A stretch of DNA of 56,376 nt from an uncultured bacterium (GTDB lineage: Bacteria > DYJV01). Below the pieces are notes generated by a model. The model was not told where the DNA came from. It worked only from the letters and a program-made list of their open reading frames with translations, and did not search any database. The stretch covers positions 1 through 56,376 of the forward strand of contig CAZBLP010000004.1 of the NCBI GenBank assembly GCA_964492825.1, in the 5' to 3' direction. Shown one piece after another: positions 28,321 to 44,436 of the stretch. Both the position numbers and the translations under genes were made by a program. Within the stretch, counting starts at the first letter, position 1. Each line of letters starts with the position of its first letter.

Positions 28321-29160
28321 ATGAGAAAAATTGATGTGTCAGAGATAAAAACAAAAGTTAAACAAATGTGTATGGATGCAAATTTTTATCTTGGCAAGGA
28401 TGTTGTCGATTCATTTAAAAAAAGTCTTGAGATTGAGGAATCAGATACAGGAAAGCATATTTTAAATGTTTTACTTCAAAATTCGGAAATAGCCAAAACC
28501 GAACATATTCCTATTTGCCAGGATACTGGCGTTGCGGTAATTTTTCTTGAAATTGGCCAAGATATACATTTTGTCGGAGGAGACCTTTACAAAGCAATAA
28601 ACGATGGTGTCAGGGAAGGATACCAAGAAGGTTATTTAAGGAAATCCATGTGTGACCCGTTTACAAGAAAAAATACAGGCGATAACACTCCGGCGGTTAT
28701 ACATTTTAAGATAGTACCTGGAGATAAAGTCAAGCTCATTGTTGCGCCAAAAGGTGGCGGAAGTGAAAATATGAGTTTGCAGCAAATGTTAAAGCCAGCA
28801 GATGGAATAGAAGGAATAAAAAAAATGATAATAGATAGAGCTTCTGTTGCAGGCCCTAACCCTTGCCCTCCTGTAATTATTGGCGTTGGAATAGGTGGTA
28901 ATTTTGAAAGAAGCACTATTTTGTCCAAAGAAGCTCTTTTGAGAGAAATTGGTAGCAGTAACCCCGACCCTGAACTTGATAAAATTGAAAAAGAATTATT
29001 AGAGAAAATTAATAATCTTGGTATGGGCCCTCAGGGATTAGGCGGCAGAGTTTATTGTCTTGCAGTGCACATTAAAAAGGAACCTTGTCATATAGCATCG
29101 CTTCCTGTTGCTATAAATTTTCAATGTCATGCAGCAAGACATAAAGAAGTTGTAATTTAA
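28321..29160 (+). CDS. class I fumarate hydratase, alpha subunit (FumA/TtdA N-terminal family)
   Basis: PICQDTG, KGGGSEN, GPNPCPP, CHIASLPV, CHAARH. Confidence 0.92.
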   Translation: MRKIDVSEIKTKVKQMCMDANFYLGKDVVDSFKKSLEIEESDTGKHILNVLLQNSEIAKTEHIPICQDTGVAVIFLEIGQDIHFVGGDLYKAINDGVREGYQEGYLRKSMCDPFTRKNTGDNTPAVIHFKIVPGDKVKLIVAPKGGGSENMSLQQMLKPADGIEGIKKMIIDRASVAGPNPCPPVIIGVGIGGNFERSTILSKEALLREIGSSNPDPELDKIEKELLEKINNLGMGPQGLGGRVYCLAVHIKKEPCHIASLPVAINFQCHAARHKEVVI

Positions 29161-29171
29161 GGAGAAAACAG

Positions 29172-29732
29172 ATGTCTGATATAATTAAAATACATGCACC
29201 ATTAACTGACGATGTTTTGGAAAATTTAAAAGCCGGTGATAATGTCCTTATTTCAGGAACAATATATACAGGGAGGGATGCTGCGCATAAAAGATTGACA
29301 GATTTAATAAAAAAAGGTAAAGAACTCCCTTTTGATATAAAAGGTCAGATAATATACTTTGTTGGCCCTACCCCACCAAAACCTGGCAAGGTTATTGGTG
29401 CTTGCGGGCCTACTACAAGTTACAGAATGGACCCTTATTCTCCTTTGCTTATAGAACACGGATTAAAAGGTATGATAGGCAAAGGTACAAGATCTCAGGA
29501 AGTTAAAGATTCAATGGTTAAATATAAAGCTGTTTATTTTGCCGCAATTGGCGGAGCAGGAGCTCTAATAAGCGAATGTATTAAAGAAGCTGAGATAATA
29601 GCTTATGAGGATTTAGGCCCCGAAGCTATTAGGAGGCTTGTTGTAAAAGATTTTCCAGTTGTCGTTGTAAATGATATTTACGGCAATGACCTTTATGAAA
29701 TAGGTAGAGCTAAATACGCTAAAAATGATTGA
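29172..29732 (+). CDS. class I fumarate hydratase, beta subunit
   Basis: GRDAAHKR, GPTTSYRM, IGKG, DLGPEA. Confidence 0.92.
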   Translation: MSDIIKIHAPLTDDVLENLKAGDNVLISGTIYTGRDAAHKRLTDLIKKGKELPFDIKGQIIYFVGPTPPKPGKVIGACGPTTSYRMDPYSPLLIEHGLKGMIGKGTRSQEVKDSMVKYKAVYFAAIGGAGALISECIKEAEIIAYEDLGPEAIRRLVVKDFPVVVVNDIYGNDLYEIGRAKYAKND

Positions 29733-29746
29733 TTCAGGAGGATTGG

Positions 29747-30157
29747 ATGAAAACTAAATTATCTAAAGAATCTATTGATTCTGAAATAATTGAGAAAATA
29801 GAAGAAATAAGTGGCGAAAATATATATAAATGTTATCAATGCGGTAAATGTTCAGCAGGATGTCCTGCTGTTGAAGAGATGGATATAATGCCTTCACAGG
29901 CAATAAGGTTCCTTCAGCTTGGCATGTACGATAAAGTTCTTAATAGTAAAACAATATGGATTTGTGCTTCCTGTATAATGTGCTTTAACAGATGCCCAAA
30001 AGGAGTTGATTTTGCCAAAATTGCAGAAGCTTGCAGAATGATTAAGTTGCGTAAAGAAGGAAGTAAAATAGAAGTAATTGATTTTGACGAAGATTATAGA
30101 AAAAGAGCGCCTCAAATAGCTTTTATAAGCTGTTATAGAAAATTTTCTTCATTATAG
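29747..30157 (+). CDS. hdrC: heterodisulfide reductase subunit C-like (HdrC1)
   Basis: CYQCGKCSAGCP and CASCIMCFNRCP; GGAGG RBS favours ATG 29747 over the track start 29729. Confidence 0.85.
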   Translation: MKTKLSKESIDSEIIEKIEEISGENIYKCYQCGKCSAGCPAVEEMDIMPSQAIRFLQLGMYDKVLNSKTIWICASCIMCFNRCPKGVDFAKIAEACRMIKLRKEGSKIEVIDFDEDYRKRAPQIAFISCYRKFSSL

Positions 30158-30159
30158 TA

Positions 30160-30217
30160 ATTGGATTTAGGATTTTGATATATTCCGGATCTTAAGTCCT
30201 AATCTAAAAATCCAAAT
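30160..30217. repeat. intergenic imperfect hairpin of GGATTTA/AAGTCCT-type heptamers
   Basis: TTGGATTT(30161-68) pairs with AAATCCAA(30208-15); AGGATTT pairs with AAGTCCT. Confidence 0.5.
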
Positions 30218-30232
30218 ACGTAGGAGTTTAAA

Positions 30233-31105
30233 ATGGAATTTGCTTATTTTCCAGGCTGTACATTATATACAAAAGCTACTCATCTCGACCATGCAGGAAG
30301 AGAATCAGCTAAAAAATTAGGCTTTGAATTAAAAGAGCTTGATAATTGGACATGTTGCGGTGCTTCATTTCCACTTGTTAATGATTATCATATGGGACTT
30401 GCATCATGTTCAAGAGTTTTAGCAGATACTAAAAATGAAGGATATGACAAATTAGTGACTCTCTGCTCAGTATGTTATAATGTATTAAAGAGGACCAATT
30501 ATGTTTTAAAAAATGATGAAGAAAGAAGATATAAAATAACAGAATTTATAGAAAGAGAATATCATGGAGAGTTAGATGTTACTCATTATCTGGAAATTAT
30601 AAGAGATGAAATAGGGTTTGATAATTTAAAAGAGAAAGTTATAAAACCTCTTAAAGATTTAAAAGTGGCTGTTTATTACGGGTGTTTGCTTTTAAGACCT
30701 CATAAAGAGATTCAGTTTGATGATCCAGAAAATCCTTCAATTTTTGAGAATTTTATGTGTGCATTAGGTGCAGAAGATGTTTACTTTCCATACAAAAATG
30801 AATGTTGCGGTGCATTTCAGGTAATGAATAACGTTGAAACTGCCAACAGATGCTCACATAATATAATTGAAAATGCAATTAAAAACGGAGCTGACTTAAT
30901 AGTAACTTCATGTCCGCTTTGTCAGTTTAATTTAGATGACAGACAAAAGATTTTAACAGAAACATACGATAAGTTTAATACAATTCCTGTAGTTTATTTT
31001 ACACAATTATTGGGCCTTGCAATGGGGCTGGATTACGAGGTTCTTGAATTTGAAAGAAATTTTGTTGATCCGAGACCTGTTTTAAAAGAAAAGGGACTTA
31101 TTTAA
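30233..31105 (+). CDS. hdrB: heterodisulfide reductase subunit B (HdrB1)
   Basis: two complete CCG domains: YFPGC/WTCCG/CSVC and YYGC/ECCG/CPLC. Confidence 0.92.
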   Translation: MEFAYFPGCTLYTKATHLDHAGRESAKKLGFELKELDNWTCCGASFPLVNDYHMGLASCSRVLADTKNEGYDKLVTLCSVCYNVLKRTNYVLKNDEERRYKITEFIEREYHGELDVTHYLEIIRDEIGFDNLKEKVIKPLKDLKVAVYYGCLLLRPHKEIQFDDPENPSIFENFMCALGAEDVYFPYKNECCGAFQVMNNVETANRCSHNIIENAIKNGADLIVTSCPLCQFNLDDRQKILTETYDKFNTIPVVYFTQLLGLAMGLDYEVLEFERNFVDPRPVLKEKGLI

Positions 31106-31137
31106 AAAATTTTTAACTATTTTTTAGGGGAATATAA

Positions 31138-32466
31138 ATGTCAGATTTTGTTAAAAGGGTTTTGGTTATAGGTGGCGGAATAGCAGGTATTACAGCAGCT
31201 ATTGATATTGGCAATGCCGGTTATGAAGTTGTTATGGTTGAAAAACTGCCAAGTGTTGGCGGTAGGATGCTTCAACTTTCAGAAACTTTTCCTACTCTTG
31301 ATTGTGCTCAATGTACTCTTACTCCAAGAACCGTTGAGACAGGACAACATCCTAATGTTAAACTCTATACATATGCAGAGGTTGTTAATGTGGAAGGAGA
31401 AGCCGGTAATTTTAAAATAAAAATCAGAAGAAAGCCAACTTATGTTGATTGGAGTAAATGTACAGGATGTGGCACATGCGTTGAGAAATGCCCTGCTAAA
31501 GTTCCTTCTGAATTTGAAAGAGATGCTGGAAAAGGAAAAGCAATTTACACTTTATCTCCCCAGGCAGTTCCAAATAAACCGGTAATAAACGCTGATTATT
31601 GCAGAATGCTTACAAAAGGCAAATGCGGAGTTTGTTCTAAGGTCTGTCCTGTTGGAGCAATTGATTATAAACAAACAGAAAGTTTTTTTGAAGAAGAAGT
31701 TGGAGCCATTATTGTAGCAACCGGTTTTCAAGTATACAACAAAAGTAATTTAAAAGATTATGGAGCAGGAAATATCCCTGATGTAATAGACGGACTTACA
31801 ATGGAAAGATTTTTATCAGCTTCAGGCCCTACAACAGGTGTTGTAAAAAGGCCTTCTGATGGCAAAATTCCAAAAGAGATAGTTTTTGTGCAATGTGCAG
31901 GCTCCAGAGATCCTGAATTTCATAAGCCTTATTGTTCAAGAATTTGCTGTATGTATACTGCAAAACATGCCAAATTGTACAAACATAAAGTACATGACGG
32001 TAAAGCTTATATTTTTTACATAGATATACGATCTACAGGAAAGGGATATGAACAGTTTATTCAGCAGACAATGGAAGAGGAAAGAGTTGTATATGTCAGA
32101 GGCAAAGTTTCCAAAATTTTTCAGGATGGCGATAAAGTTGTAGTTTGGGGCTCTGACACTTTAACTGGAGAAAAAATAGAGATTTCCGCTGATATGGTAG
32201 TATTGGCTGCTGCTGTTGAGCCTAATCCTGAAGCAAAAGAAATAGCAGAAACTTTAGGGATAGATATTAATGAATTAGGTTTTTTTAAAGAAAAAGATTA
32301 TAAAACAAGCTCAAATGAAACAAACAGAGAAGGAATTTATCTTGCAGGCTGCTGCCAAGGAATTAGAGATATTGCAGATTCCACAGCTCATGCAAGTGCG
32401 GCTGCAAGCAAAGTTCATGTATTGTTTGAAAAATTAAGTAATAAACTTGCTAAAAAAAGTTGTTAA
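31138..32466 (+). CDS. hdrA: short HdrA-like flavoprotein lacking N- and C-terminal Fe-S domains
   Basis: starts at GGGIAG; FPTLDCAQC; inserted ferredoxin; QCAGSRD...YCSRICCMYTAK; ends after GCCQG. Confidence 0.88.
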   Translation: MSDFVKRVLVIGGGIAGITAAIDIGNAGYEVVMVEKLPSVGGRMLQLSETFPTLDCAQCTLTPRTVETGQHPNVKLYTYAEVVNVEGEAGNFKIKIRRKPTYVDWSKCTGCGTCVEKCPAKVPSEFERDAGKGKAIYTLSPQAVPNKPVINADYCRMLTKGKCGVCSKVCPVGAIDYKQTESFFEEEVGAIIVATGFQVYNKSNLKDYGAGNIPDVIDGLTMERFLSASGPTTGVVKRPSDGKIPKEIVFVQCAGSRDPEFHKPYCSRICCMYTAKHAKLYKHKVHDGKAYIFYIDIRSTGKGYEQFIQQTMEEERVVYVRGKVSKIFQDGDKVVVWGSDTLTGEKIEISADMVVLAAAVEPNPEAKEIAETLGIDINELGFFKEKDYKTSSNETNREGIYLAGCCQGIRDIADSTAHASAAASKVHVLFEKLSNKLAKKSC

Positions 32467-32481
32467 AAGAGGAATAATAAA

Positions 32482-34464
32482 ATGCCCAAAAGAATAGGTG
32501 TTTTTGTATGCTGGTGCGGTGCAAATATTGCATCTTCTGTTGATGTTAACAAAGTTGTTGAAGAAATAAAAAAAGAACCTGACGTTGAATTTGCCATAAA
32601 TTATATGTACATGTGTTCTGATCCGGGACAGCAGCTTGTAAAAGATCATATTGTAGAAGACAATTTAAACGGTGTGGTTGTGTGCAGTTGTTCACCAAGA
32701 ATGCACGAAAATACATTTAGAAAAGCAGCTGCAAGTGTCGGACTCAATCCTTTTTTAGTGGAAATAGCTAATATTAGAGAGCAGTGCAGTTGGGTTCATC
32801 AGGGGGACAAACCTGTAGCTACTGCAAAAGCAATTAATATTATAAAAGCAACTATTGAAAAAGTAAGACAAAATATAGAATTAGTACCTATTGAAGTCAG
32901 TCTTAATAAAAGGTCTCTTGTTGTTGGAGCCGGTATCAGCGGAATAATGGCAGCAATAGATCTTGCAGAAGCTGGATATGAAGTTGTGCTTGTTGAAAAA
33001 GAGCCTGCTATTGGCGGCAAACTTTTGCAATTATACAAAACAGTTCCTTATTTTAAAAAAGCATCTGATTATATAAAAGAAAAATCAGAAATAGTTTTAA
33101 ATCATCCGAATATTACTTTATACACATATAGCGAAATTGACGACCTTGACGGTTATGTCGGAAATTTTGAAGTTAATATCAGAAAAAAAGCTTCTTTTAT
33201 TAATACGGACAAATGCACAAATTGCAACAAATGTATTGACGTCTGTCCTGTTGAAGTTTCAGACGAATTTAACAGAGGATTGTCAAAGAGAAAAGCAGTT
33301 CATTATCTTACTGAAAAAGCATTCCCAAAAAGATTGGTAATTGATGCTGCAAATTGCAAACATTTTACAGATGGGAATTGTGACAAGTGCGTTAATGTAT
33401 GTAAAGAATCGGCAATAGATTTTAATATGAAGGATGAAATTGTTAAAGAGCTTGTTGGTGCAATTGTGATAGCAACAGGATATAAACTTTACAGTTCAGC
33501 AAATTTCCCTGAATGGGGAGGCGGAGAACTACCTGATGTTATTGATGCTCTTGCATTTGAAAGAATGCTTGATCCTGAAGGTCCTACAGGTGGTAAAATA
33601 ATCAGACCATCAAACGGAAAAGAAGCCAAAACAGTTTTATGGGTAAAATGTGCAGGCTCAAGAGATCCTGAATTTCATAAACCGTACTGCTCAAGAGTCT
33701 GTTGTATTTATACTGCAAAACAGGCAAGGCTTTTTAAACAAAATGTTCCTGATGGTAAAGCTTTTATCTCTTACATGGATATAAGAACAGATTCAAAAGA
33801 TTTTGAAGAGTTTTATCATGCAGGAATTGAAAATGACAGAATAGTATATATAAGAGGAAGAATTTCCAAAGTCTTTCAAGAAGGAGAAAATTTGGTTGTC
33901 CGAACTTCTGATACTCTTACAGGTGAGGCACTTGATTTGGAAGTTGACCTTGTGGTCTTGGCAAATGCTATTGTTCCAGTTGACGGAGTGGAAGAACTTG
34001 CAAAAAAATTGAGAGCAACAATAGATGAATTTGGATTTTTCTCAGAAACACATATAAAACTTTACCCTGTTGAGAGTTCTACAAAGGGAATTTATTTGGC
34101 AGGATGCGCTCAATCGCCAAAAGATACAACAGATTCGGTATCTCAGGCATTGGCATCAACAGGTAAAATTTTAACACTTTTTGCAAATGACAAATTAAGC
34201 CAGGACCCTTTAATTGCTATGGTTGATCCTCTTGTATGCAGTGGTTGCGGTATTTGTGTCGATATCTGTCCTTATGGTGCAAGAAAATTAAACGAAATTA
34301 CAAAAATATCAGATGTTAATAAAGCTTTATGTCAGGGATGCGGTGCCTGTATAGCAGCTTGTCCCAACAAGGCTTGCGAGCTGATTAATCAGACAAGCAT
34401 TCAGACTTTCAGAATGATTAATACATTCCAAGAGCCTGATATGGAAATAGTGCTTGAATCATAA
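32482..34464 (+). CDS. hdrA: HdrA with N-terminal Fe-S domain but lacking the DCxxC motif
   Basis: IGVFVCWCG...CSCSP...NIREQCSWVH; GAGISG; LYKTVPYF replaces TLDCxxC; inserted and C-terminal ferredoxins. Confidence 0.9.
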   Translation: MPKRIGVFVCWCGANIASSVDVNKVVEEIKKEPDVEFAINYMYMCSDPGQQLVKDHIVEDNLNGVVVCSCSPRMHENTFRKAAASVGLNPFLVEIANIREQCSWVHQGDKPVATAKAINIIKATIEKVRQNIELVPIEVSLNKRSLVVGAGISGIMAAIDLAEAGYEVVLVEKEPAIGGKLLQLYKTVPYFKKASDYIKEKSEIVLNHPNITLYTYSEIDDLDGYVGNFEVNIRKKASFINTDKCTNCNKCIDVCPVEVSDEFNRGLSKRKAVHYLTEKAFPKRLVIDAANCKHFTDGNCDKCVNVCKESAIDFNMKDEIVKELVGAIVIATGYKLYSSANFPEWGGGELPDVIDALAFERMLDPEGPTGGKIIRPSNGKEAKTVLWVKCAGSRDPEFHKPYCSRVCCIYTAKQARLFKQNVPDGKAFISYMDIRTDSKDFEEFYHAGIENDRIVYIRGRISKVFQEGENLVVRTSDTLTGEALDLEVDLVVLANAIVPVDGVEELAKKLRATIDEFGFFSETHIKLYPVESSTKGIYLAGCAQSPKDTTDSVSQALASTGKILTLFANDKLSQDPLIAMVDPLVCSGCGICVDICPYGARKLNEITKISDVNKALCQGCGACIAACPNKACELINQTSIQTFRMINTFQEPDMEIVLES

Positions 34465-34504
34465 ATTTTTAAAATAGATAAGTTATTACAAACAGAGGTT
34501 TAAT

Positions 34505-35047
34505 ATGAATAAATTTGCAGAAGAGATTAGCAGTAAAAGCGGAGAAATTTTTAATCTGTGTTATCAATGTAAAAAATGTACTGCAGGTTGTCCTACAGCG
34601 GAGTTTATGGATATTAAGCCAAATGAAATCATAAGACACATTCAATATGGCAACAGAGACAAATTATTAACAAGTGAAGCTATTTGGCTCTGTGTTTCCT
34701 GTGACACATGCGGTGAAAGATGTCCGAATGATATAAAAATTTCAAAATTAATGGGAGCTTTGAGAAGAAAAGCAATTGAAGATAAAGTGGAAATAGCTGA
34801 TAAAGTCGGCTATGCATTTAACAGATCATTTGTTGAAAGTATAAAAAGATACGGCAGGGTTCATGAAGCTACATTTTTAATTTCATACAAATTAAAAACA
34901 AAAGATTTTTTTAGCGAAGCTGCTTTAAATGACATGAAAGTCGGTATAAAATTATTCATGAGAGGTAAGTTACCTCTTTTCCCAAAAAAAATAAAAGACA
35001 TGACTGCTATTAAAAACATATTTAAAAAATGTGTGCCAGAGATTTAG
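34505..35047 (+). CDS. hdrC: heterodisulfide reductase subunit C (HdrC2)
   Basis: CYQCKKCTAGCP and CVSCDTCGERCP, GRVHE. Confidence 0.88.
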   Translation: MNKFAEEISSKSGEIFNLCYQCKKCTAGCPTAEFMDIKPNEIIRHIQYGNRDKLLTSEAIWLCVSCDTCGERCPNDIKISKLMGALRRKAIEDKVEIADKVGYAFNRSFVESIKRYGRVHEATFLISYKLKTKDFFSEAALNDMKVGIKLFMRGKLPLFPKKIKDMTAIKNIFKKCVPEI

Positions 35048-35102
35048 TTTTTTTTATTTTTAGAGAGCATTAATAAAATTTAAAAAAACATCAGGAGTAA
35101 AA

Positions 35103-35927
35103 ATGGAACTGTCATATTATCCAGGTTGTACTGCTCATTCAACAGCAATAGAGTATGAAAACTCAATTGAAGAAGTTTTGAAAATTTTGGGAGTAACAAT
35201 TAAAGAAATAGAAGATTGGAATTGTTGCGGCTCAGGGCCTGCAAAAAATATAAGCGAAGACCTTGTTATAAACCTTTCTGCAAGAAATATAAAAATAGCT
35301 GAAAAAGAGGGCAAAGATCTTCTTATACCATGTGCAGGATGTTTTAATAGTTTGAAAAGATCTGAATATGCATTAAAAGACAATAGTAAAAAAGCTGAAA
35401 TAGAGAATAATGTTGATTTCAAATTTCAGGGAAATATCAACATAAAATATATTTTGGATACATTTATGGAAATAGGTATTGATAAAATAAAAGCAAATGT
35501 TAAAAAAGAGTTATCACAAATTAAAGCTGTTTGTTATTATGGATGTGCAATTTTAAGACCAAGCGAGGTTGTAACTTTTGACAATCCCGAACATCCTGAT
35601 TCAATGGATGAATTAATGAAAGCAATTGGGGTGAAAGTTCTTGATTGGCCGTCAAAGGTTGACTGCTGCGGCGGTGATGCAGCTCTTACCAATCCGGAGC
35701 TTGCATCAAAATTAATTGGTAAGATCGTTGATTATGCAAAAGAAGCCGGAGCAAACTGTATTGTTACGTCATGCGGATTATGCCAGGCAAATATTGATAC
35801 AAAACAGAGCACGGATAATCCGTTGCCTGTGTTATATTTTACTGAATTAATAGGTGAAGCTTTTCAGGTTTCAGATACAAGCAGTTGGTGGAAAAAACAT
35901 ATTGTGGATCCAAAAGGATTATTTTAA
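35103..35927 (+). CDS. hdrB: heterodisulfide reductase subunit B (HdrB2)
   Basis: YYPGC/WNCCG/CAGC and YYGC/DCCG/CGLC. Confidence 0.92.
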   Translation: MELSYYPGCTAHSTAIEYENSIEEVLKILGVTIKEIEDWNCCGSGPAKNISEDLVINLSARNIKIAEKEGKDLLIPCAGCFNSLKRSEYALKDNSKKAEIENNVDFKFQGNINIKYILDTFMEIGIDKIKANVKKELSQIKAVCYYGCAILRPSEVVTFDNPEHPDSMDELMKAIGVKVLDWPSKVDCCGGDAALTNPELASKLIGKIVDYAKEAGANCIVTSCGLCQANIDTKQSTDNPLPVLYFTELIGEAFQVSDTSSWWKKHIVDPKGLF

Positions 35928-35956
35928 ATTTTAATTAAAAAATTCGGAGAATTAAC

Positions 35957-38950
35957 ATGAATGAGGTTGCAATAATAGGTGCAGGTTTTGCAGGAATGAG
36001 TGCGGCTCTTGCACTTGCTGATAAAGGTGTAAAAGTTAATTTAATAGATAAAAAAGTTGCAATGGGCGGTTATTTCCCGTTATTGGATAATCAATTCCCT
36101 ACAAATTCCTGCGGAGTTTGTTTTTTATCTCCTGAGCCACCTGCTTTTTGTCCTTTTATAGAGTGTAATTTAAGAGAAAATATAAATTTTATGGGAAATG
36201 CATTAGTTGAAAATATTTCAGGGGAAGAAGGCAATTTCACAATTAATGTAAAAATTCTCAATAACCCTGTAAACAATGATTTATGTATAGATTGCGGCAA
36301 ATGTGAAGAAGTTTGTCCTGTTGAAGTTTCTAATGAATTTGGCGATGGTATTGAGGTTAGAAAAGCGGTTTACAAATTTTATCCCAAAGCAGTTAAAAAA
36401 TCTTATTTTCTTAATATTGACAATTGCAATAAATGCAATAAATGTGTTGAAATATGCCCTACTAAGGCAATTGATTTAAATGCGAATAATGAGAAAAATA
36501 TCAGTTTAAATGTATCTGAAATTATTTTAACTCCCGGTTTCAAATCAGTTCAAGGAAATATTAAGGAAGAATTTGGTTTTGGTATTAATAAAAATGTTCT
36601 TTCATCTGTTCAATATGAAAGACTTATAAGCCCTTCAGGTCCTACAAAAGGAATACCGCAAAGACCTTCAGACGGTTCTCATCCAAAAAGTATAGCTTTT
36701 CTTCAATGTGTAGGCTCAAGAGACATTAGAAAAAAAGGCAATCCTTACTGTTCTTCAATTTGCTGTATGTTTGCATTAAAACAGGCAATGCTTACCAAAG
36801 ATAAACTACCAGATACTGATATTACCTTTTTTTATATGGATATAAGAGCTTTTGGAAAAGATTATGAACAATATTTCCAAAAAGCAAAAGATGAATATGG
36901 AATAAATTTTATCAGGTGCCATGTATCTACTGTAAAAGAACATGGTGACAGTAAAATCATTACAATTACATATTATGAAAACGGAGAATTAAAGGAGAAA
37001 GATTTTGATATAGCTGTACTTTCACTTGGATTTTATCAGGATGAAGAAACAAAAGCTTTAATTCAAAAATCAGGGATAAATGTCAATGAATTTAATTTTG
37101 CAATTACAAATGAATTTTCTCCTTTTAATACCAATATCCCAGGCATTTATGCAGCAGGTTCTTTTATTGCGCCTAAAGATATCCCTGAAACTACCACTGA
37201 TGGCTCAGGTGTGGCAGCAAAAATATTGGAAAAATTCAAACCAGGTTCAGATAAATTTACTCCTGTGCCAATTTCACCATCTATGGCTGAAAGCCCAAGA
37301 GTTGGAGTTTTGATATGTAAATGCGGCAATATTCTTGAAAATAGCATTGATATTTCCGCTGTTCTACAAAGTTGTAAAAATATTCCCGAAGTTGTTTATA
37401 CAGATACCATTGATAATCTCTGTAATAAAGAGACATTAAATGAAGTGAAAAAAATAATTTCAGACAATGCACTTGACAGATTGGTTGTAGGAGGCTGCTC
37501 TGTTAGAGAGCTTGAAGCTATTTTTGAAAAATTTAAAGACACTGGTTATTCAATGTTAAACTTTGAATTTGTTAATTTAAGAGAACAATGTATTTTTTCA
37601 AGCAATTGTGATAATTTTATTCTTACAGAGAAATCCTTTATTCTTTTAAATTCCGCAATAAAAAAAGTTTTATTAAACAAAGCTTCTAATCAAACTAAAA
37701 CAGAAATTAAAGATTCAGCTCTTGTAATAGGTGCCGGTGCCGCAGGAATGAGCGCTGCTCTGTCTCTTGCATACCAGGGTAGCAAAGTATTTTTAATAGA
37801 AAAAAATGATGAAATAGGCGGAAGATTGCTTAATGCATATTATACGTTAAAAGGTACGGATATTCAGAAAAGTATAAAATCCCTTGTAGAAGAAGTAAAA
37901 AATAATAAAAATATAGAAATTTTGACAGGTGCCAGAATAACCTCTTCAGAAGGATTGGTAGGAGACAGAAAAACAAAAGTTTTAACAGGCGAAGTTGAAC
38001 GTGAAATTGAACATGGAGTTACTGTTTTAGCTACAGGAGCATGTGAAGTTATCCCTGCCTCTTATTCCTATAATGAATCTGATAAAATAATTACCCAGGT
38101 TGAGCTTGAAGAAAAAATAGCTAACAATAATTTATCTGAAAATATAAAAGAAATAGTTATGATTCAATGTGTAGAATCAAGGGAAAAAGGCAAGAGAGAA
38201 TATTGCAGCAGAGTTTGCTGTACCCATGCTTTAAAAAATGCACTTAAACTAAAGGAAAAATATCCGGATGTTCAAATTACGGTTCTTTACAGAGATATAA
38301 GAGCTTACGGATTTTATGAAAATTTTTATAGGCAAGCCAGAAACAAGGGGATTATATTTATTCCGTATGATGTTAATAAAAAACCTGAAGTTAAAGTTTC
38401 AGGCGATACTGTAGCAATTAGTTTTGAAGATACTATAATAAACGAAGAAGTTAATAAAAATACAGACTTGTTAGTTTTAAGCACAGGCATCCAGGCTAAT
38501 GATAATAAAAAATTAGCAGATATATTCGGAATTCCCATTGATAAATTTAACTTTTTTAAAGAAGCAAATAAAAAAACCGGTATTTTAACATTTTTAAAAA
38601 AAGATATTTTTATGTGCGGACTATGCCATGCTCCAAAGCATATTGACGAAGCAGTTGCACAAGGTTATTCTGCTGCAGCAAGAGCTTCTCTGTTTTTATC
38701 AAAAAAAGAACTAATATCTTTGGAGAAAAAATCTTTTGTTATTGACAGGTTTTGCAGTGGCTGCGGAATATGCGTTGAAGTGTGTCCATTTGATGCAAGA
38801 ATTATTGATGAAGAAAAGAAAATAGCAAAAGTATTTGAGACTATCTGCGAAGGCTGCTCAGCTTGTGTTATGGCTTGTCCAAACGGAGCAGCACAGCAGT
38901 ATGGTTATGAAAAATCACAGATATTAAATGTTGTGGATAAATTACTTTAA
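35957..38950 (+). CDS. hdrA: large tandem HdrA-HdrA fusion (two FAD domains)
   Basis: two GAGxAG motifs; first half FPTNSCGVC + inserted ferredoxin; second half GVLICKCG...NLREQC + C-terminal ferredoxin. Confidence 0.88.
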   Translation: MNEVAIIGAGFAGMSAALALADKGVKVNLIDKKVAMGGYFPLLDNQFPTNSCGVCFLSPEPPAFCPFIECNLRENINFMGNALVENISGEEGNFTINVKILNNPVNNDLCIDCGKCEEVCPVEVSNEFGDGIEVRKAVYKFYPKAVKKSYFLNIDNCNKCNKCVEICPTKAIDLNANNEKNISLNVSEIILTPGFKSVQGNIKEEFGFGINKNVLSSVQYERLISPSGPTKGIPQRPSDGSHPKSIAFLQCVGSRDIRKKGNPYCSSICCMFALKQAMLTKDKLPDTDITFFYMDIRAFGKDYEQYFQKAKDEYGINFIRCHVSTVKEHGDSKIITITYYENGELKEKDFDIAVLSLGFYQDEETKALIQKSGINVNEFNFAITNEFSPFNTNIPGIYAAGSFIAPKDIPETTTDGSGVAAKILEKFKPGSDKFTPVPISPSMAESPRVGVLICKCGNILENSIDISAVLQSCKNIPEVVYTDTIDNLCNKETLNEVKKIISDNALDRLVVGGCSVRELEAIFEKFKDTGYSMLNFEFVNLREQCIFSSNCDNFILTEKSFILLNSAIKKVLLNKASNQTKTEIKDSALVIGAGAAGMSAALSLAYQGSKVFLIEKNDEIGGRLLNAYYTLKGTDIQKSIKSLVEEVKNNKNIEILTGARITSSEGLVGDRKTKVLTGEVEREIEHGVTVLATGACEVIPASYSYNESDKIITQVELEEKIANNNLSENIKEIVMIQCVESREKGKREYCSRVCCTHALKNALKLKEKYPDVQITVLYRDIRAYGFYENFYRQARNKGIIFIPYDVNKKPEVKVSGDTVAISFEDTIINEEVNKNTDLLVLSTGIQANDNKKLADIFGIPIDKFNFFKEANKKTGILTFLKKDIFMCGLCHAPKHIDEAVAQGYSAAARASLFLSKKELISLEKKSFVIDRFCSGCGICVEVCPFDARIIDEEKKIAKVFETICEGCSACVMACPNGAAQQYGYEKSQILNVVDKLL

Positions 38951-39019
38951 AATATAAAGACATAATTAAGACTTTTAGAAATAAAAAAACAACTTGAAAC
39001 TGAATAAAGAGGTGTGAAT

Positions 39020-39448
39020 ATGGCAGATGAGAAATTTGAACCAAAATTAATTGCATTTTTGTGTCACTGGTGTACTTATACAGGAGCAGACCTTGCCGGT
39101 ACCACAAGACAGCAGTACCCGCCTAATATAAGAGTTGTACATCTTATGTGCTCAGGTGGTATAGACGTTGTCTATGTACTAAAATCTTTGCTTGAAGGTG
39201 CAGACGGTGTACTTATTGGTGGATGTCATCCAGGGGATTGTCATTATCAATCAGGAAATTTTAAAGCAAGAAGAAGGATTGCTATTTTAAAAAATATTCT
39301 AAAACAATTCGGTCTGGAAGATGACAGAGTTTGGCTAAGGTGGATAAGTGCAAGTGAAGGTAAAATGTTTGCAGATACAGTTACTGAATTTACCAATTTT
39401 TTAAAAGCCAAAGGACCTGCTAAATTGAAGTTAACATGGGATGCTTAA
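39020..39448 (+). CDS. mvhD: MvhD/FlpD [2Fe-2S] subunit
   Basis: FLCHWCTY, LMCSG, GGCHPGDCHY; start ATG 39020 or GTG 39014. Confidence 0.92.
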   Translation: MADEKFEPKLIAFLCHWCTYTGADLAGTTRQQYPPNIRVVHLMCSGGIDVVYVLKSLLEGADGVLIGGCHPGDCHYQSGNFKARRRIAILKNILKQFGLEDDRVWLRWISASEGKMFADTVTEFTNFLKAKGPAKLKLTWDA

Positions 39449-39508
39449 TTTTTTAGATAATTGTCAGTTAAATGTTTTTAAGTTTGAACTAAACATAGGA
39501 GGAAATAG

Positions 39509-40630
39509 ATGCCTGTTACAAATAAAGTAAATAACCTGGAAGGGGTTATAGATTACTTAAAAAAATTACTTGAAAATAATGTGGTAGATGAAATTTTAAT
39601 ACCTAAACTCAGCAGCTCAAAAGATAATTATATCCAGACTCTTGTCAGTTCACCTGACATGTTAGAAGGCTGTAATCCTTTTGCACCTGTTATCCCTATT
39701 CAAACAGGTAGGATTGCAAAAAACCTGACTTTTACAACATCTGGCAAAAAATTGCTTATTATTGCAAAACCATGCGAAATTAAAGCAATTGTTGAGCTAA
39801 CGAAATTTAAACAGGTAAATCTTGACAATTGTTACATAATTGCAGTTGATTGTATTGGGACTTATGATGTTAACGATTTTCAGGAAATTTTATTGAATAA
39901 TCAAGATTATATAGATAATTTTACTTCAAAATACAGCAGCGGTGAATTTAAACCTGTTAATGGTTTTTCATTTAGAAAATCTTGCTCAATGTGTGAAACA
40001 CCCTCAATATCATTGGAACTTGTTGATGGTGTTTTCGGATATTTCGCCACTTCAGGAAGTGAAATTTTCATTATTGCCAAAGATGATTCTCCTTTAAAAG
40101 AAACTTTTGAAAATCAAAATCTGGATTTGTCAAAAAGAGAAGATGTTATAAATAAACTTAAACAGGAACGATTAAAGAATAAAAATGAAATTTTAAATAA
40201 TTTCAGAGAAGAAACATCAAATCTCGAATCTTTACAAAAGGTATTTTCAAAATGTATTAGATGCCACAACTGTATGGTTGCCTGTCCAATATGTTACTGC
40301 AAGGAATGTGTTTTCAGAAGTCCTACCTTTGATCATTCAGCTGATATGATTACAGGTTGGGCAGAAAGAAAAGGAGCCTTGAGAATGCTCGAAAACACAT
40401 TAATGTTTCACCTTACAAGACTTAATCATATGTCAAGTTCCTGTATAGCCTGCGGATTATGCTCAAGTGCATGTCCCAATGATATAGATGTGGCAACTGT
40501 TTTTATCAGTGTTTCAGACAATGTTCAAAATATGCTCGATTATAAAGCTGGTGAAAGTTTTGACGAGCCTGCGCCAGTTACAACTTTTAGAGAAAACGAG
40601 CTTGTTGCAGAAGCAGGCACAAATGAATAA
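39509..40630 (+). CDS. FdhB/FrhB-family iron-sulfur (flavo)protein
   Basis: KPCEIKAIVEL, DCIG, CSMC, CIRCHNCMVACPICYCKEC, CIACGLCSSACP. Confidence 0.75.
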   Translation: MPVTNKVNNLEGVIDYLKKLLENNVVDEILIPKLSSSKDNYIQTLVSSPDMLEGCNPFAPVIPIQTGRIAKNLTFTTSGKKLLIIAKPCEIKAIVELTKFKQVNLDNCYIIAVDCIGTYDVNDFQEILLNNQDYIDNFTSKYSSGEFKPVNGFSFRKSCSMCETPSISLELVDGVFGYFATSGSEIFIIAKDDSPLKETFENQNLDLSKREDVINKLKQERLKNKNEILNNFREETSNLESLQKVFSKCIRCHNCMVACPICYCKECVFRSPTFDHSADMITGWAERKGALRMLENTLMFHLTRLNHMSSSCIACGLCSSACPNDIDVATVFISVSDNVQNMLDYKAGESFDEPAPVTTFRENELVAEAGTNE

Positions 40631-40658: not shown

Positions 40659-41453
40659 ATGGAGGATAAAATGAGTGAAGCAAAAAAACAGCAAATTAAC
40701 ATTGCTACCGGTGACAGACCTGTTCTTCCGGAAGGTTCAAAAGAGATACCGGTATATATAATGGGTAAAAAATATATGGTGCCTGAGACAATTACCATTC
40801 AGAAAGCAATTGAATATGCCGGATATAAATTTATTAGAGCATGCGGCTGCCGTGGCGGAATTTGTGGTGCTTGCGGAACTGTTTACAGAATATACGGAGA
40901 TTACAGATTAAATTTCGGTTTAGCATGCCAGACTGTTGTACAGGAAAATATGTATATTGCACAGATTCCCTTTTATCCTGCTAACAGGGCAAAATATAAT
41001 ATAAATGAAGTAGAAGCAGAAGCAGACACAATAATGGCACTTTATCCTGAAGTTTTAAAATGTGTAGGATGTAACACTTGTTCAAAAGCCTGTCCTATGG
41101 ATATAGATGTTATGGGATACATTAATGCTGCAATGAGAGGTGATGTTGAAAAAGTGGCAAAATTATCTTTTGACTGTATTCAATGTGGGTTATGCTCGTC
41201 AAGATGTCCTGCACAAATACAGCATTATCACGTAGCGCAACTTTGCAGAAGATTGTATGGTAAATATATTCTTCCTAAGGATACTTTTTTACAGGAAAGA
41301 AGCAAGGACATAGAAAACGGCAAATATGAAAATATGCTTGCTGAATTAAAACAATTACCCCTTGATGAACTTAAGAAAAAATATGTTGCAAGAGAAATGG
41401 AGCCAGCAACTCATGACGGCACATGGATGCCTCAGGAAACGGAATATTTGTAA
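40659..41453 (+). CDS. FrdB/SdhB-like iron-sulfur subunit ([2Fe-2S] + 2x[4Fe-4S])
   Basis: CGCRGGICGAC...LACQT; CVGCNTCSKACP; CIQCGLCSSRCP; start may be ATG 40671. Confidence 0.8.
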   Translation: MEDKMSEAKKQQINIATGDRPVLPEGSKEIPVYIMGKKYMVPETITIQKAIEYAGYKFIRACGCRGGICGACGTVYRIYGDYRLNFGLACQTVVQENMYIAQIPFYPANRAKYNINEVEAEADTIMALYPEVLKCVGCNTCSKACPMDIDVMGYINAAMRGDVEKVAKLSFDCIQCGLCSSRCPAQIQHYHVAQLCRRLYGKYILPKDTFLQERSKDIENGKYENMLAELKQLPLDELKKKYVAREMEPATHDGTWMPQETEYL

Positions 41454-41489
41454 AATTAAAAATCGAAAATTTAAATAAAGGAGCAAAAA

Positions 41490-43148
41490 ATGGGATACAC
41501 ACCTGAAATGAAAGAATTAATAAAAAAAGTTGAAGCTTCAAGACCTGCAAGGGTTGATAAAGCAAGAAACGGGGAAATGTTTCCTCCTTTGACACTTGAT
41601 CAGAGAGAAGAAGTTCTGAATAAATTCCATCCTGATTATAAATCTGTGGGAAGACGTGCAGTAAAAGTTGGTCCAAGCAAAGGAGAAATTTATCCTGACG
41701 AATTTGCAGATGTACTTGAAGCTCACAGTAGAATCGAACCAAATATAGATTTGGACACTCTTTTAAAATATGAAACAGATGTGCTTGTAATAGGCGGGGG
41801 AGGAGCCGGAAGTGCAGCTGCATTGCTTGCACAGGAGCAAGGATGCAAAGTAATTATAGCCACAAAACTTCGTCATGGTGATGCCAATACAGTGATGGCA
41901 GAAGGCGGTATTCAGGGTGCTACAAGAAAACCTGATTCCCCATATTATCACTACCTTGATGTAATGGGAGGCGGACACTTTACCAATGATCCAGAGCTTG
42001 TTGCTGCTCTTGCAAATGATGCTCCTCTTGTTATTAGATGGCTTGAAGATCTCGGAATGATGTTTGACAAAGATGAAAAGGGTAATTTAAAAACAAGGCA
42101 TGGCGGAGGAACATGCAGAAAAAGAATGCACTCAGCAGGTGACATGACAGGTTCAGAAATAATGAGAGTTTTAAGAGATGAAGTTAGAAACAGATGTGAT
42201 GATATAGATGTTCTGGAATTTACTCCTGCTGTTGAAATAGTTTTGGATGAGAACGGTAATGCTGCAGGTGCAGTATTATACAACATGGAAACAGAAGAAT
42301 TTTTTGTTGTAAAAGCAAAAGCAGTTATTATTGCCACAGGTGGTTACGGAAGACTTCATATTCAAGGTTTTGCAACAACCAATCACTATGGTGCCACAGC
42401 AGATGGTCTTATATTAGGTTACAGAGCGGGAGTGCCTTTGGCTTTTATGCATTCCACTCAATATCACCCAACAGGAGCTGCATTTCCCGAGCAAAATATT
42501 GGGCTTTTAATTACAGAAAAAGTAAGAGGATTAGGTGCCAATCTTTTAAATATAAACGGAGAGCAGTTTGTATTTGAAAGGGAGCCAAGAGATGTTGAAT
42601 CAGCTTGTATTATCAGAGAATGCCTTGAAAGAGAGCTCGGCATTGTGACTCCTACAGGTAGAGTCGGTGTATGGCTTGATTCTCCAATGATTGACATGCT
42701 TGAAGGTGCTGGAACAGTTGAAAAAGAACTACCTGCAAAATATATTCAGTTTAAAAGATACAACATTGATATTAGCAAAGAGCCTATGCTTGTTTTTCCA
42801 ACACTTCATTATCAAAACGGAGGCTTAAAAATAAAAGATTCTACTGAGACTAATGTACCGGGGTTATTTGCTGCAGGTGAGGCAAGCGGCGGAGTTCACG
42901 GCGAGAACAGATTAATGGGAAATTCTCTTCTTGATATTACAGTTTTTGGAAGAAGAGCTGGAAAAGCCGCAGGAGAATATGTAAAAAACGGAGTTAATAT
43001 TGGTAAATTAACTCTTGAACATATAAAGAAATATGAAGAAGAATTAAAAGAAGCAGGTATTGATACAGAAAGGCAATCTCCAATGTTGCTTCCTGATTAC
43101 ACAAGACCTGAAATAAAAAAAAGCCAACTCACTCATATAGTATGGTAA
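41490..43148 (+). CDS. FrdA/SdhA/TfrA-like flavoprotein (dicarboxylate active site, no covalent-FAD His)
   Basis: GGGGAG, ANTVMAEGG, QYHPTG, LITEKVRG, EPRD, LHYQNGG, VHGENRLMGNSL. Confidence 0.85.
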   Translation: MGYTPEMKELIKKVEASRPARVDKARNGEMFPPLTLDQREEVLNKFHPDYKSVGRRAVKVGPSKGEIYPDEFADVLEAHSRIEPNIDLDTLLKYETDVLVIGGGGAGSAAALLAQEQGCKVIIATKLRHGDANTVMAEGGIQGATRKPDSPYYHYLDVMGGGHFTNDPELVAALANDAPLVIRWLEDLGMMFDKDEKGNLKTRHGGGTCRKRMHSAGDMTGSEIMRVLRDEVRNRCDDIDVLEFTPAVEIVLDENGNAAGAVLYNMETEEFFVVKAKAVIIATGGYGRLHIQGFATTNHYGATADGLILGYRAGVPLAFMHSTQYHPTGAAFPEQNIGLLITEKVRGLGANLLNINGEQFVFEREPRDVESACIIRECLERELGIVTPTGRVGVWLDSPMIDMLEGAGTVEKELPAKYIQFKRYNIDISKEPMLVFPTLHYQNGGLKIKDSTETNVPGLFAAGEASGGVHGENRLMGNSLLDITVFGRRAGKAAGEYVKNGVNIGKLTLEHIKKYEEELKEAGIDTERQSPMLLPDYTRPEIKKSQLTHIVW

Positions 43149-43163
43149 AAAATTGTATCTAAT

Positions 43164-43200
43164 AATTGGAATAGGGAGCTGCTCCCTATTCCATCCAATT
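43164..43200. terminator. strong hairpin between convergent operons
   Basis: TGGAATAGGGAGC-T-GCTCCCTATTCCA (43167-93) with outer AATTGGA/TCCAATT arms. Confidence 0.7.
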
Positions 43201-44297: not shown

Positions 44298-44436
44298 AAA
44301 ATCCCCTTGCTTTATGTGCTGATTTTTGCATGCAGATACCATAAAAAATTCAAATACGCAATATAATTGCTTTAATGGTAAAGACTCCATTTAAAACTGT
44401 TATAGACTTTTAACATAAAATGTGGTAATTATCAGT

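Follow-up and report, generated by a model that had tools for sequence, protein, structure and literature searches.

Fumarate reduction is the step of the reductive TCA (rTCA) cycle that has an unclear electron donor in many anaerobes and autotrophs. Among described systems, the frdABEF genes of Syntrophobacter fumaroxidans (Sfum_4092-4095) appear to belong to the same family as the locus analysed here, an equation made from their published description and not from sequence. The S. fumaroxidans set combines an FrdB without the [3Fe-4S] motif with a cysteine-rich FrdE, and was given the label 'type E' (PMC3570798). Its subunits were 11- to 45-fold more abundant in pure culture on fumarate than in coculture with Geobacter (PMC8691401), and their induction on fumarate is also reported in PMC5947623. 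By this analogy, the kind of enzyme considered below has probably been noticed already. Type E succinate:quinone reductases (SdhABEF) carry a second [4Fe-4S] cluster and a CCG-domain subunit that acts as a monotopic quinone site, and they use quinone (PMC2754724).

Other described enzymes dispense with a membrane anchor. As relayed by later papers, TfrAB of Methanothermobacter is a soluble, anchor-less fumarate reductase whose iron-sulfur subunit is tied to an HdrB-type CCG module (Heim et al. 1998, via PMC6315080 and PMC2754724). A bacterium would not be expected to contain its thiol donors, CoM-SH and CoB-SH. Putative TfrAB proteins are also encoded beside FlxABCD-HdrABC in the rTCA clusters of tubeworm symbionts and Thioflavicoccus, where the authors proposed that electrons come from the Hdr complex (PMC6315080, PMC11636981, PMC13147460). 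Going by these descriptions, such an AB-only enzyme with Hdr and TCA genes nearby is like the present locus, from which it differs by a Flx NADH module and adjoining korABCD and aclAB genes. The five-subunit NADH-dependent enzyme of Hydrogenobacter thermophilus, to judge from the summary of Miura et al. 2008 in PMC13147460, is likewise a soluble rTCA fumarate reductase that joins FrdA and FrdB to cytoplasmic input subunits.

The window, by which we mean the whole stretch of 56,376 nucleotides of an uncultured bacterium that was analysed, contains an frdB-frdA gene pair at the end of a 13-gene cluster (Table 1). We propose that the encoded proteins form the catalytic part of an Hdr-fed fumarate reductase that is cytoplasmic, lacks an anchor and binds FAD non-covalently, and we place the probability of this reading at about 0.65.

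Table 1. Positions in the window of the frdBA genes, their diagnostic segments and their surroundings
Feature	Position	Strand	Basis
frdB-like iron-sulfur subunit (P0001)	40659..41453	+	ORF, 264 aa
[2Fe-2S] ligand region of FrdB, C62/C64-x4-C69-x2-C72 ... C90	40842..40928	+	alignment with E. coli FrdB/SdhB
CxxCxxCxxxCP motif 1 of FrdB (C135-P146)	41061..41096	+	aligned to E. coli FrdB; invariant
CxxCxxCxxxCP motif 2 of FrdB (C173-P184)	41175..41210	+	alignment; Cys invariant
C-terminal tail of FrdB, family-specific, about 70 aa	41244..41450	+	alignment with E. coli FrdB/SdhB and homologues
frdA-like flavoprotein (P0002)	41490..43148	+	ORF, 552 aa
N-terminal extension of FrdA, residues 1-95	41490..41774	+	conservation, structure model, alignment
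Asn133 codon of FrdA, position of the covalent-FAD His	41886..41888	+	alignments
Dicarboxylate-site/catalytic stretch of FrdA (H326, T342, E343, R346, R367, H440, R474)	42465..42911	+	alignment
Short C-terminal remnant of FrdA, residues 500-552	42987..43145	+	alignment; without PF02910 match
11-bp GC-rich hairpin 3ˊ of frdA	43168..43192	.	RNA fold
Upstream context, fumA through 373-aa FrhB/HdrC-like Fe-S gene	28321..40630	+	Pfam, NCBIfam, synteny

Cofactor and catalytic sites of the two subunits

A PF00890 match of 247 bits spanning residues 97-480 places FrdA in the Sdh/Frd/NadB flavoprotein superfamily, and structural matches to its model include Fcc3 fumarate reductases (Z 33) and E. coli FrdA (Z 31). 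The pair resembles E. coli FrdAB and SdhAB in fold, in catalytic residues, and in the arrangement of the [2Fe-2S] and first [4Fe-4S] clusters. However, identity to these proteins is only 31-32%, and the window enzyme differs in having no covalent His, [3Fe-4S] cluster, C-terminal domain or membrane subunits, in its reversed gene order, and in the extra terminal segments present on both subunits.

The flavin-site region of FrdA has the sequence HGDANTVMAEGG. When the protein is aligned with a TfrA equivalog and with FrdA, SdhA and NadB of E. coli, Asn133 shares a column with His44 of FrdA and His45 of SdhA, confirming the proposal in an earlier note on this DNA that the His required for covalent FAD is missing. 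Classical SQR/QFR enzymes of types A-D have this His for 8-alpha-N3-histidyl FAD. A broader alignment of 68 rows has N in this column in all 20 rows of the window clade and H in 21 of the 26 Sdh/Frd/Tfr rows, whereas the NadB rows carry N, S or A, with N the commonest (17/22). Because Asn stands in place of the flavinylated His, FrdA probably holds its FAD non-covalently. Mutants of E. coli FrdA at His44 keep FAD non-covalently and retain fumarate reduction, but lose succinate oxidation; loss of the covalent link also lowers the flavin potential.

The dicarboxylate site that the same note had recognized is intact. Residues H326, E343, R346, R367, H440 and R474 are retained in 20 of 20 clade rows of the 68-row alignment, and the T342 column holds T in 14 of the 20, with the window FrdA among those that have it. 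Together with T342, these positions are equivalent to H232, E245, R248, R287, H355, R390 and T244 of E. coli FrdA, for which mature numbering (the Met1-based index minus one) is used.

The cysteines of FrdB follow the pattern C64-x4-C69-x2-C72...C90, then CVGCNTCSKACP (residues 135-146), and then CIQCGLCSSRCP (residues 173-184). The first of these regions aligns with the Cx4Cx2C...C motif of the [2Fe-2S] cluster in E. coli FrdB and SdhB, and the first four-cysteine motif aligns with CINCGLCYAACP of E. coli FrdB. The second site of E. coli FrdB is CTFVGYCSEVCP, without the second Cys, and the column of C176 is occupied by V in that protein and by I in SdhB. With C176 as the fourth cysteine, the site is predicted to hold a [4Fe-4S] cluster where the classical enzymes have [3Fe-4S], and the second motif departs from the Cx5-6CxxxCP signature of classical SQR/QFR enzymes of types A-D by having four cysteines. 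All cluster-ligand cysteines, including C173, C176, C179 and C183, are invariant across 18 homologues, so the two full CxxCxxCxxxC motifs first read from the sequence hold throughout. Further downstream, the protein ends with a W256-x-P258...YL tail that is conserved in the family and missing from E. coli FrdB and SdhB. A Pfam search found no CCG domain in the 264-aa protein. The assignment of FrdB as a homologue rests on an hhalign comparison with E. coli FrdB (probability 95.9%, E 5e-9, both domains covered), as a profile search of PDB sequences returned generic dicluster ferredoxins and one weak SdhB match.

Phylogenetic position and distribution

Hundreds of window-type relatives were found with 65-93% identity, and the traits described here are family-wide, far beyond chance. 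The window pair has each of the features that mark this clade, namely Asn at the His column, the N-terminal extension of about 90 aa, the truncated C-terminus, and frdB directly upstream of frdA. The branch is widespread and is common in Thermodesulfobacteriota as well as in other uncultured lineages. Its FrdA proteins are usually annotated simply as 'FAD-binding protein' or 'succinate dehydrogenase', and the sequence cluster that contains the window FrdA carries no names. Representatives from Syntrophobacter, Desulforhabdus and Desulfoferrobacter are 66-67% identical to the window FrdA, share its Asn, N-terminal extension and short C-terminus, and are encoded at loci in which frdB and HdrC/HdrB-like genes precede frdA.

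The window FrdA falls below every curated NCBIfam cut-off. Its top match there is TfrA (NF004900), at 352.3 bits (cut-off 718), whereas a true TfrA equivalog (P0174) scores 765 bits on the same model. For NadB (TIGR00551), it scores 270.8 bits (cut-off 452.75). In two trees, the window clade is separate from TfrA, from classical SdhA/FrdA and from NadB, with SH-aLRT values of 100 and 97, while TfrA groups with classical Sdh/Frd. A joint clade of TfrA and the window family is disfavoured (AU p = 0.022 in a 39-row LG+G4 test). The trees behind these clade tests were built by quick methods, and the grouping under test was defined only once the first tree was in view. The phylogenetic comparison with TfrA, FrdA, SdhA and NadB that the earlier note had suggested as a check therefore yields a deep branch for the window family alone within the succinate dehydrogenase family.

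This placement qualifies the likeness to TfrA that had been drawn at the outset. The covalent His is indeed also missing from the TfrA equivalog, but the window protein is not a narrow relative of TfrA. Differences between the two systems are extensive, because TfrA retains a C-terminal domain, lacks the N-terminal extension, and is encoded in the order A-B, whereas the window order is B-A. Furthermore, TfrB unites the iron-sulfur subunit and the CCG module in one protein, whereas the window encodes the CCG module in a separate gene.

Gene neighbourhood, electron supply and competing interpretations

The 13 co-directional genes begin with fumarase (fumA, fumB) and continue with hdrC1, hdrB1, a short hdrA, hdrA, hdrC2, hdrB2, a fused hdrA-hdrA of 997 aa, mvhD, and the gene for the 373-aa FrhB/HdrC-like Fe-S protein that lies immediately upstream of frdB; frdBA come last. 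The HdrB-like CCG proteins and the HdrC-like dicluster proteins are encoded by separate genes. Transmembrane-like segments are missing from all 13 cluster proteins (no 19-residue hydrophobic stretch other than Rossmann-fold N-termini), and the cluster has no genes for membrane anchor subunits. The gene that follows frdA, a member of the DAO family, is convergent with it. The hairpin between the two (z = -4.2 versus shuffles) was recovered by RNA folding and was not among the matches of a simple terminator scan. It is likely the end of the operon.

Across related loci, frdB immediately precedes frdA in 74 of 75 cases, and Hdr, MvhD or Fe-S genes are nearby in 56 of 65. The gene just 5ˊ of frdB encodes the 373-aa Fe-S protein at 32 loci, HdrB at 16, HdrA at three and MvhD at two. 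A minimal hdrC-hdrB-frdB-frdA architecture occurs at 12 loci and is the form seen in Syntrophobacter, which differs in this respect from the window with its fumarase, two HdrBC pairs, four HdrA modules, MvhD and extra Fe-S protein. In Syntrophobacterales, a CCG (HdrB-like) neighbour is found only beside the window-type paralogue, in agreement with the published account of frdABEF (PMC3570798). Twelve of the 65 loci (the Desulfomonile type) lack Hdr genes next to frdBA; L066 has cytochrome and NrfCD-like genes there instead. A distant clade member has an frdB-frdA-nuoF-like operon, which would supply a soluble NADH input module. The same catalytic pair thus seems to be combined with different cytoplasmic inputs, from HdrBC or HdrA-MvhD to a large Hdr cluster or a NuoF-like protein.

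These observations suggest how the enzyme might operate. FrdA would reduce fumarate to succinate at the classical His/Arg/Thr-Glu site, with two [4Fe-4S] clusters and then one [2Fe-2S] cluster of FrdB forming the wire to the flavin. Electrons would enter FrdB from the soluble Hdr-type proteins of the preceding genes (Fe-S protein, MvhD, HdrA pairs and HdrBC pairs) and not from quinol. A point against this reading is that genes for an obvious primary donor, such as a hydrogenase, a formate dehydrogenase or a clear NADH module, are lacking from the cluster. Judging by synteny, FrdBA may be physically attached to the Hdr module. A complex prediction for FrdB with the 373-aa Fe-S protein gave a score of 0.01, which, having been obtained without control runs, speaks neither for nor against binding. 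Presumably, the fumarase encoded at the start of the cluster provides fumarate, and the enzyme may serve a reductive TCA branch toward succinyl-CoA and 2-oxoglutarate. The genome encodes succinyl-CoA synthetase and several 2-oxoacid:ferredoxin oxidoreductases.

The enzyme is predicted to be biased toward reduction, as the earlier note had proposed, and this fits the increase of the Syntrophobacter counterpart with fumarate (PMC8691401); direction and flavin linkage alike are predictions. The main competitor is the same enzyme in reverse, that is, a soluble succinate dehydrogenase whose electrons are confurcated by the Hdr module with those of reduced ferredoxin onto a mid-potential carrier. 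An oxidative role is conceivable because the window FrdA is the only Sdh/Frd-like flavoprotein found in the 94%-complete assembly, and the authors of an S. fumaroxidans proteome study (PMC5947623) put forward the idea that FrdABEF works reversibly under sulfate. However, Asn is fixed throughout the clade, and loss of the covalent link costs the E. coli His44 mutants their succinate oxidation. The fumarate response of the Syntrophobacter counterpart runs against this interpretation as well, and a same-genus genome carries canonical SdhAB in addition, which hints at another enzyme for oxidation in the lineage. On balance, reverse operation seems unlikely.

Slightly less probable again is a peripheral membrane enzyme like those of type E, in which the HdrB-like CCG subunit would attach to the membrane and trade electrons with menaquinone, making the enzyme quinol-dependent. 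A second [4Fe-4S] cluster together with a CCG subunit free of transmembrane helices is common to type E enzymes (PMC2754724) and to the window, and in S. fumaroxidans the minimal four-gene form has been assigned to type E (PMC3570798). A pair of [4Fe-4S] clusters is not in itself proof of quinone independence, as quinone-using type E enzymes have such a pair too, and since the type E CCG subunit is a monotopic quinone site, contact of the HdrB-like subunits with quinone is conceivable. The quinone independence originally proposed from the cluster content therefore has to be argued from gene context, which, with no membrane helix in the cluster, does favour it. The FAD of type E SdhA is covalent, whereas Asn is fixed in the window clade. 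In addition, MvhD and the Fe-S protein precede frdB, the four HdrA-type modules are parts of soluble bifurcation systems, one relative uses the NuoF-like module, and the CCG partner in the window is paired with a separate HdrC-like dicluster protein rather than with an SdhF-like subunit. Least probable is a substrate other than fumarate, such as L-aspartate (as in NadB), mesaconate or urocanate, because, although the clade is deep and known from sequence, the window protein misses every curated NCBIfam cut-off and its Asn is the residue most NadB rows share, the NadB-specific Glu (E. coli Glu121) is E in 22 of 22 NadB rows and in none of the 20 clade rows (G205 in the window), NadA was not found in the 94%-complete genome, the obligatory FrdB partner and the fumarase in the operon point to fumarate, and the two Arg and two His residues that bind the substrate carboxylates do not vary.

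For the Hdr-fed fumarate reductase, a tentative extension is that FrdBA forms the high-potential exit of an Hdr-type flavin-based electron-bifurcating supercomplex, which would be of a new kind and which we regard as possible but doubtful. In this scheme, the HdrA pairs, MvhD, the Fe-S protein and HdrBC would split electron pairs from a mid-potential donor, either NAD(P)H or a dithiol, passing one electron on to ferredoxin and one to fumarate (+30 mV), such that fumarate reduction within a reductive or reversed TCA cycle would pay for the low-potential electrons used by 2-oxoacid synthases. A phrase search of the literature for a bifurcating fumarate reductase returned nothing relevant. If bifurcation by the Hdr-linked forms is real, ferredoxin reduction would be driven by fumarate as well as by crotonyl-CoA and heterodisulfide, and the energy balance of carbon fixation and of syntrophy would have to be redrawn. 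Metagenome surveys should be cautious not to score window-type genes as complex II.

Terminal segments of FrdA

Both rearranged termini ascribed to FrdA from its sequence proved to be genuine. At the C-terminus, 72 residues follow the NRLxxNSL motif, compared with 183-205 in SdhA and FrdA, 148 in NadB and 159 in TfrA. A Pfam search did not find PF02910 (Succ_DH_flav_C), and the first helix alone is left of the classical C-terminal domain.

At the N-terminus, the GxGxxG motif begins at residue 102, versus 12-15 in E. coli FrdA, SdhA and NadB. Annotation from a wrong start codon was considered for this extension and rejected, as conservation starts at residue 1, which indicates genuine coding sequence. 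Among 38 homologues, Y3, E15, R18, R21, R39, H47, P48, D49, G61 and G65 are invariant, and the structure model assigns the extension pLDDT values of 82-92. Residues 1-73 are unaligned in every PDB structural match, and a Pfam search of residues 1-96 and 495-552 found no family. A search of a protein-cluster atlas with the extension returned unnamed clusters of about 99 aa with scores of at most 0.88, which are perhaps fragments of the window-type family. In a natural FrdB-FrdA fusion protein (P0127), the extension comes directly after the FrdB part.

Sequence features of the FrdBA pair

The flavoprotein P0002 (FrdA) and its iron-sulfur partner P0001 (FrdB) are encoded on the same strand with a spacing of 36 nt. 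P0002 is a FAD_binding_2 protein (PF00890, 247 bits), the sole full-length one found in the window's assembly, and has no match to the C-terminal domain family PF02910 in a Pfam search. Its top curated match is TfrA (352 bits versus a cut-off of 718), and it reaches none of the curated cut-offs for Sdh, Frd or NadB. We aligned it with E. coli FrdA, SdhA and NadB (K-12 record) and with P0174, which qualifies as a TfrA equivalog (765 bits versus 718). The column of the flavinylated His, which the earlier note had reported as lacking this residue, is occupied by Asn133 in P0002, by Gly-Cys in TfrA and by Ser in NadB. Across a 68-row alignment, it holds Asn in 20/20 rows of the window's clade, His in 21 of the 26 Sdh/Frd/Tfr rows, and Asn, Ser or Ala in NadB. 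All 20 clade rows also retain the dicarboxylate-site residues H326, E343, R346, R367, H440 and R474, which correspond to FrdA H232, E245, R248, R287, H355 and R390 (mature numbering).

Both termini are rearranged. The dinucleotide-binding glycines begin at residue 102, versus 12-15 in the E. coli proteins, and the N-terminal extension has a predicted structure with pLDDT of 82-92. This extension is kept from its earliest residues, since Y3, E15, R18, R21, R39, H47-P48-D49, G61 and G65 are invariant among 38 homologues. The C-terminal helical region is much shortened, with 72 residues following the NRLxxNSL motif versus 148-205 in the compared proteins.

Pfam matches of P0001 are confined to generic dicluster ferredoxin families, but its profile aligns with that of E. 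coli FrdB at 95.9% probability over both the [2Fe-2S] and the dicluster domain. Its cysteines are arranged as C64-x4-C69-x2-C72...C90, followed by two full four-cysteine motifs, CVGCNTCSKACP and CIQCGLCSSRCP, and all are invariant among 18 homologues. In the last motif, E. coli FrdB and SdhB have no second Cys and for this reason carry a [3Fe-4S] cluster. Linkers in the window's FrdB are shortened, and its tail of ~70 aa is conserved. The observation made in the earlier note is thus confirmed in every element, and its interpretation is supported after three corrections. The pair keeps its fumarate site intact, has lost the flavinylation His, carries a predicted 2Fe/4Fe/4Fe wire and belongs to a separate clade. 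By analogy with established enzymology, FrdA would bind FAD non-covalently at a lowered flavin potential, and so would reduce fumarate without useful oxidation of succinate.

Identity as an L-aspartate oxidase (NadB) can be rejected. E. coli NadB Glu121 contacts the aspartate amino group in NadB structures. Its column holds Glu in every NadB row (22/22) but in no row of the window's clade (Gly205 in the window's FrdA), and Phe in 22 of the 26 Sdh/Frd/Tfr rows. In addition, NadA was not found in the 94%-complete window genome, and the window-type flavoprotein is always accompanied by FrdB.

Extent and phylogeny of the family

The best 120 matches of a word-indexed search are all full-length relatives (548-559 aa, 68-93% identity), most of them without a name or labelled 'FAD-binding protein'. 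A scan of the genome collection yielded 250 loci, the best 80 of which come chiefly from Thermodesulfobacteriota ('Deltaproteobacteria') MAGs. Among these 80 are loci of two cultured bacteria, Desulfoferrobacter suflitae and Desulforhabdus sp., and of MAGs assigned to Syntrophobacter and Desulfomonile. The gene is present in 4/4 genomes of the window's taxonomic family (83-100% identity), and two same-order genomes have classical-length homologues only. Kinship among the compared genomes steps directly from 'same order' (five genomes) to 'same domain', which suggests that the lineage is an isolated, deep-branching order whose genomes are small (~2 Mb).

Neighbouring families were reached by an exhaustive search of 50%-identity representatives. 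A full-length tree of 68 rows splits into two groups (SH-aLRT 100). One is the 20-row clade, which comprises the window's family, more distant members with the N-terminal extension and a ~400-aa group without either terminus; Asn is present in all and the C-terminal domain in none. The other 48 rows fall into NadB and Sdh/Frd clades, with the TfrA equivalog inside the latter. When 39 rows were rooted with flavocytochrome-type domains, the window's clade (support 97) became sister to NadB plus Sdh/Frd/TfrA (support 93). The flavoprotein had been likened to TfrA and NadB in its lack of the covalent-FAD His; in these trees its clade is separate from TfrA, FrdA, SdhA and NadB. Constraining the window's clade and the TfrA group together cost 41.6 log-likelihood units (AU p = 0.022, 39 rows), although both trees are quick and this grouping was named only after the first tree was viewed. 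For this reason we conclude only that the clade is clearly not inside TfrA, the deep topology not being settled by such trees. Within the clade, P0153, P0170 and P0188 (about 400-410 aa) lack the N-terminal extension and the C-terminal region, leaving a bare FAD/capping-domain enzyme with Asn; the one contig recovered for P0153 is so short that it includes no adjacent gene.

Gene context and proposed electron input

Eleven further co-directional genes precede frdB (see table), and none of the 13 cluster proteins has transmembrane-like segments. The cluster has no anchor gene, and frdBA is tightly linked to Hdr-type genes. Quinone independence had been proposed from the two [4Fe-4S] clusters, which are weak evidence alone; gene context provides the stronger argument for it.

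Features of the frdBA cluster and its 3' flank
Feature	Position	Strand	Remarks
Class I fumarase alpha + beta	first in upstream series	+	Pfam/NCBIfam matches
HdrC-like, HdrB-like genes	after fumarase pair	+	
HdrA, then HdrA	after first HdrC/HdrB genes	+	442 aa, then 660 aa
Second HdrC/HdrB pair	after 660-aa HdrA	+	
Double HdrA	after second HdrC/HdrB pair	+	997 aa
MvhD	after 997-aa double HdrA	+	
Fe-S protein	39509-40630	+	373 aa; directly upstream of frdB
frdB-like ORF (P0001)	40659-41453	+	264 aa
frdA-like ORF (P0002)	41490-43148	+	552 aa
GC-rich hairpin, 11 bp	43168-43192		3' of frdA; z = -4.2
DAO-family FAD-dependent oxidoreductase	43251-44390	-	379 aa; convergent, directly after cluster

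The 373-aa protein combines an FrhB-like N-terminal part, with a weak FrhB/FdhB C-terminal-like region at residues 80-132, and an HdrC-like dicluster part with two CxxCxxCxxxCP motifs ~50 residues apart. It resembles the unnamed Sfum_0822 protein of an HdrABC/HdrL cluster (PMC5947623).

Of the best 80 related loci, 75 have room for an upstream frdB, and 74 of these carry it immediately 5' of frdA. Among the 65 with at least 1.5 kb upstream, 56 carry an Hdr, MvhD or Fe-S gene. The 373-aa-type Fe-S protein is the most frequent direct neighbour of frdB (32/65), followed by HdrB (16), HdrA (3) and MvhD (2); in the other 12, frdB adjoins none of them. The recurrent architectures are hdrC-hdrB-frdB-frdA, hdrCB-hdrA-mvhD-frdBA and, as the third, the window's large form. 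P0127 (727 aa) is a natural single-chain fusion in the order B-A, joining an FrdB-like part (Fer2 + Fer4) to a window-type FrdA; the order is reversed (A-B) in P0166 (869 aa), a fusion from the classical clade. The distant clade member P0129 (48% identity, same N-terminal extension and Asn) is encoded on three metagenome/MAG contigs (L110-L112, 7366-10891) in a three-gene operon with the order frdB-like (212 aa), frdA-like (545 aa) and NuoF-like (418 aa), the last bearing Complex1_51K, SLBB and NADH_4Fe-4S domains (NADH/FMN + [4Fe-4S]). The operon may encode a soluble NADH:fumarate reductase of three subunits. In a Desulfomonile tiedjei MAG (L066, 6566-16334), frdBA lacks Hdr neighbours and is flanked by two ferredoxin-like proteins and an MtrC-like multihaem cytochrome, with NrfC-like, NrfD-like and molybdopterin oxidoreductase genes downstream, as in Desulfomonile-type loci. 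It may represent a membrane- or cytochrome-linked variant, or merely an adjacent operon. The varied neighbours, the fusion and the NuoF-like operon together suggest one catalytic pair with interchangeable, mainly soluble electron-input modules.

By synteny, FrdBA in the window's system would receive its electrons from the Hdr module, with MvhD and the Fe-S protein as carriers in between. A bifurcation in which fumarate is the high-potential acceptor and ferredoxin is reduced as well is a speculative proposal that we consider rather unlikely. Its candidate donors are a dithiol, which would be oxidised at HdrB, and NAD(P)H, which might enter through the latter half of the 997-aa HdrA, where weak similarity to GltD-like NAD(P)-binding proteins is seen.

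Physiology and known systems

The window's genome encodes succinyl-CoA synthetase and several multi-subunit 2-oxoacid:ferredoxin oxidoreductases; DsrC was not found in it. Together with the operon's fumarase, these enzymes fit a reductive branch or reversed TCA cycle (malate to fumarate, succinate, succinyl-CoA and 2-oxoglutarate). A same-genus genome has a canonical SdhA (TIGR01816, 867 bits) and SdhB on a 6.2-kb contig (L116, G004:C93), a pair not found in the window's genome; this contig could be a true part of that MAG or a contaminant.

A fumarate reductase fed by Hdr is already in print as a hypothesis. An AB-only 'TfrAB' whose genes lie beside flxABCD-hdrABC in Thioflavicoccus and in symbionts of tubeworms has been proposed as the recipient of bifurcated electrons (PMC6315080, PMC11636981; review PMC13147460). 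The S. fumaroxidans genome contains four Sdh/Frd clusters, among them frdABEF (Sfum_4092-4095), classed as 'type E', which lacks a membrane subunit and encodes a cysteine-rich FrdE and an FrdB devoid of the [3Fe-4S] motif (PMC3570798). Because an HdrB-like CCG gene adjoins only the window-type paralogue in three Syntrophobacterales genomes, we infer that the window-type family corresponds to frdABEF, matched by the published description and neighbouring genes. The window's FrdBA belongs to a widespread, already noticed structural variant that is predicted to be a fumarate reductase, and its main interest lies in its presumed electron-input wiring. The FrdABEF subunits of S. fumaroxidans are more abundant with fumarate (PMC5947623), and a pure culture grown on fumarate contained 11-, 45- and 15-fold more of them than a coculture with Geobacter (PMC8691401).
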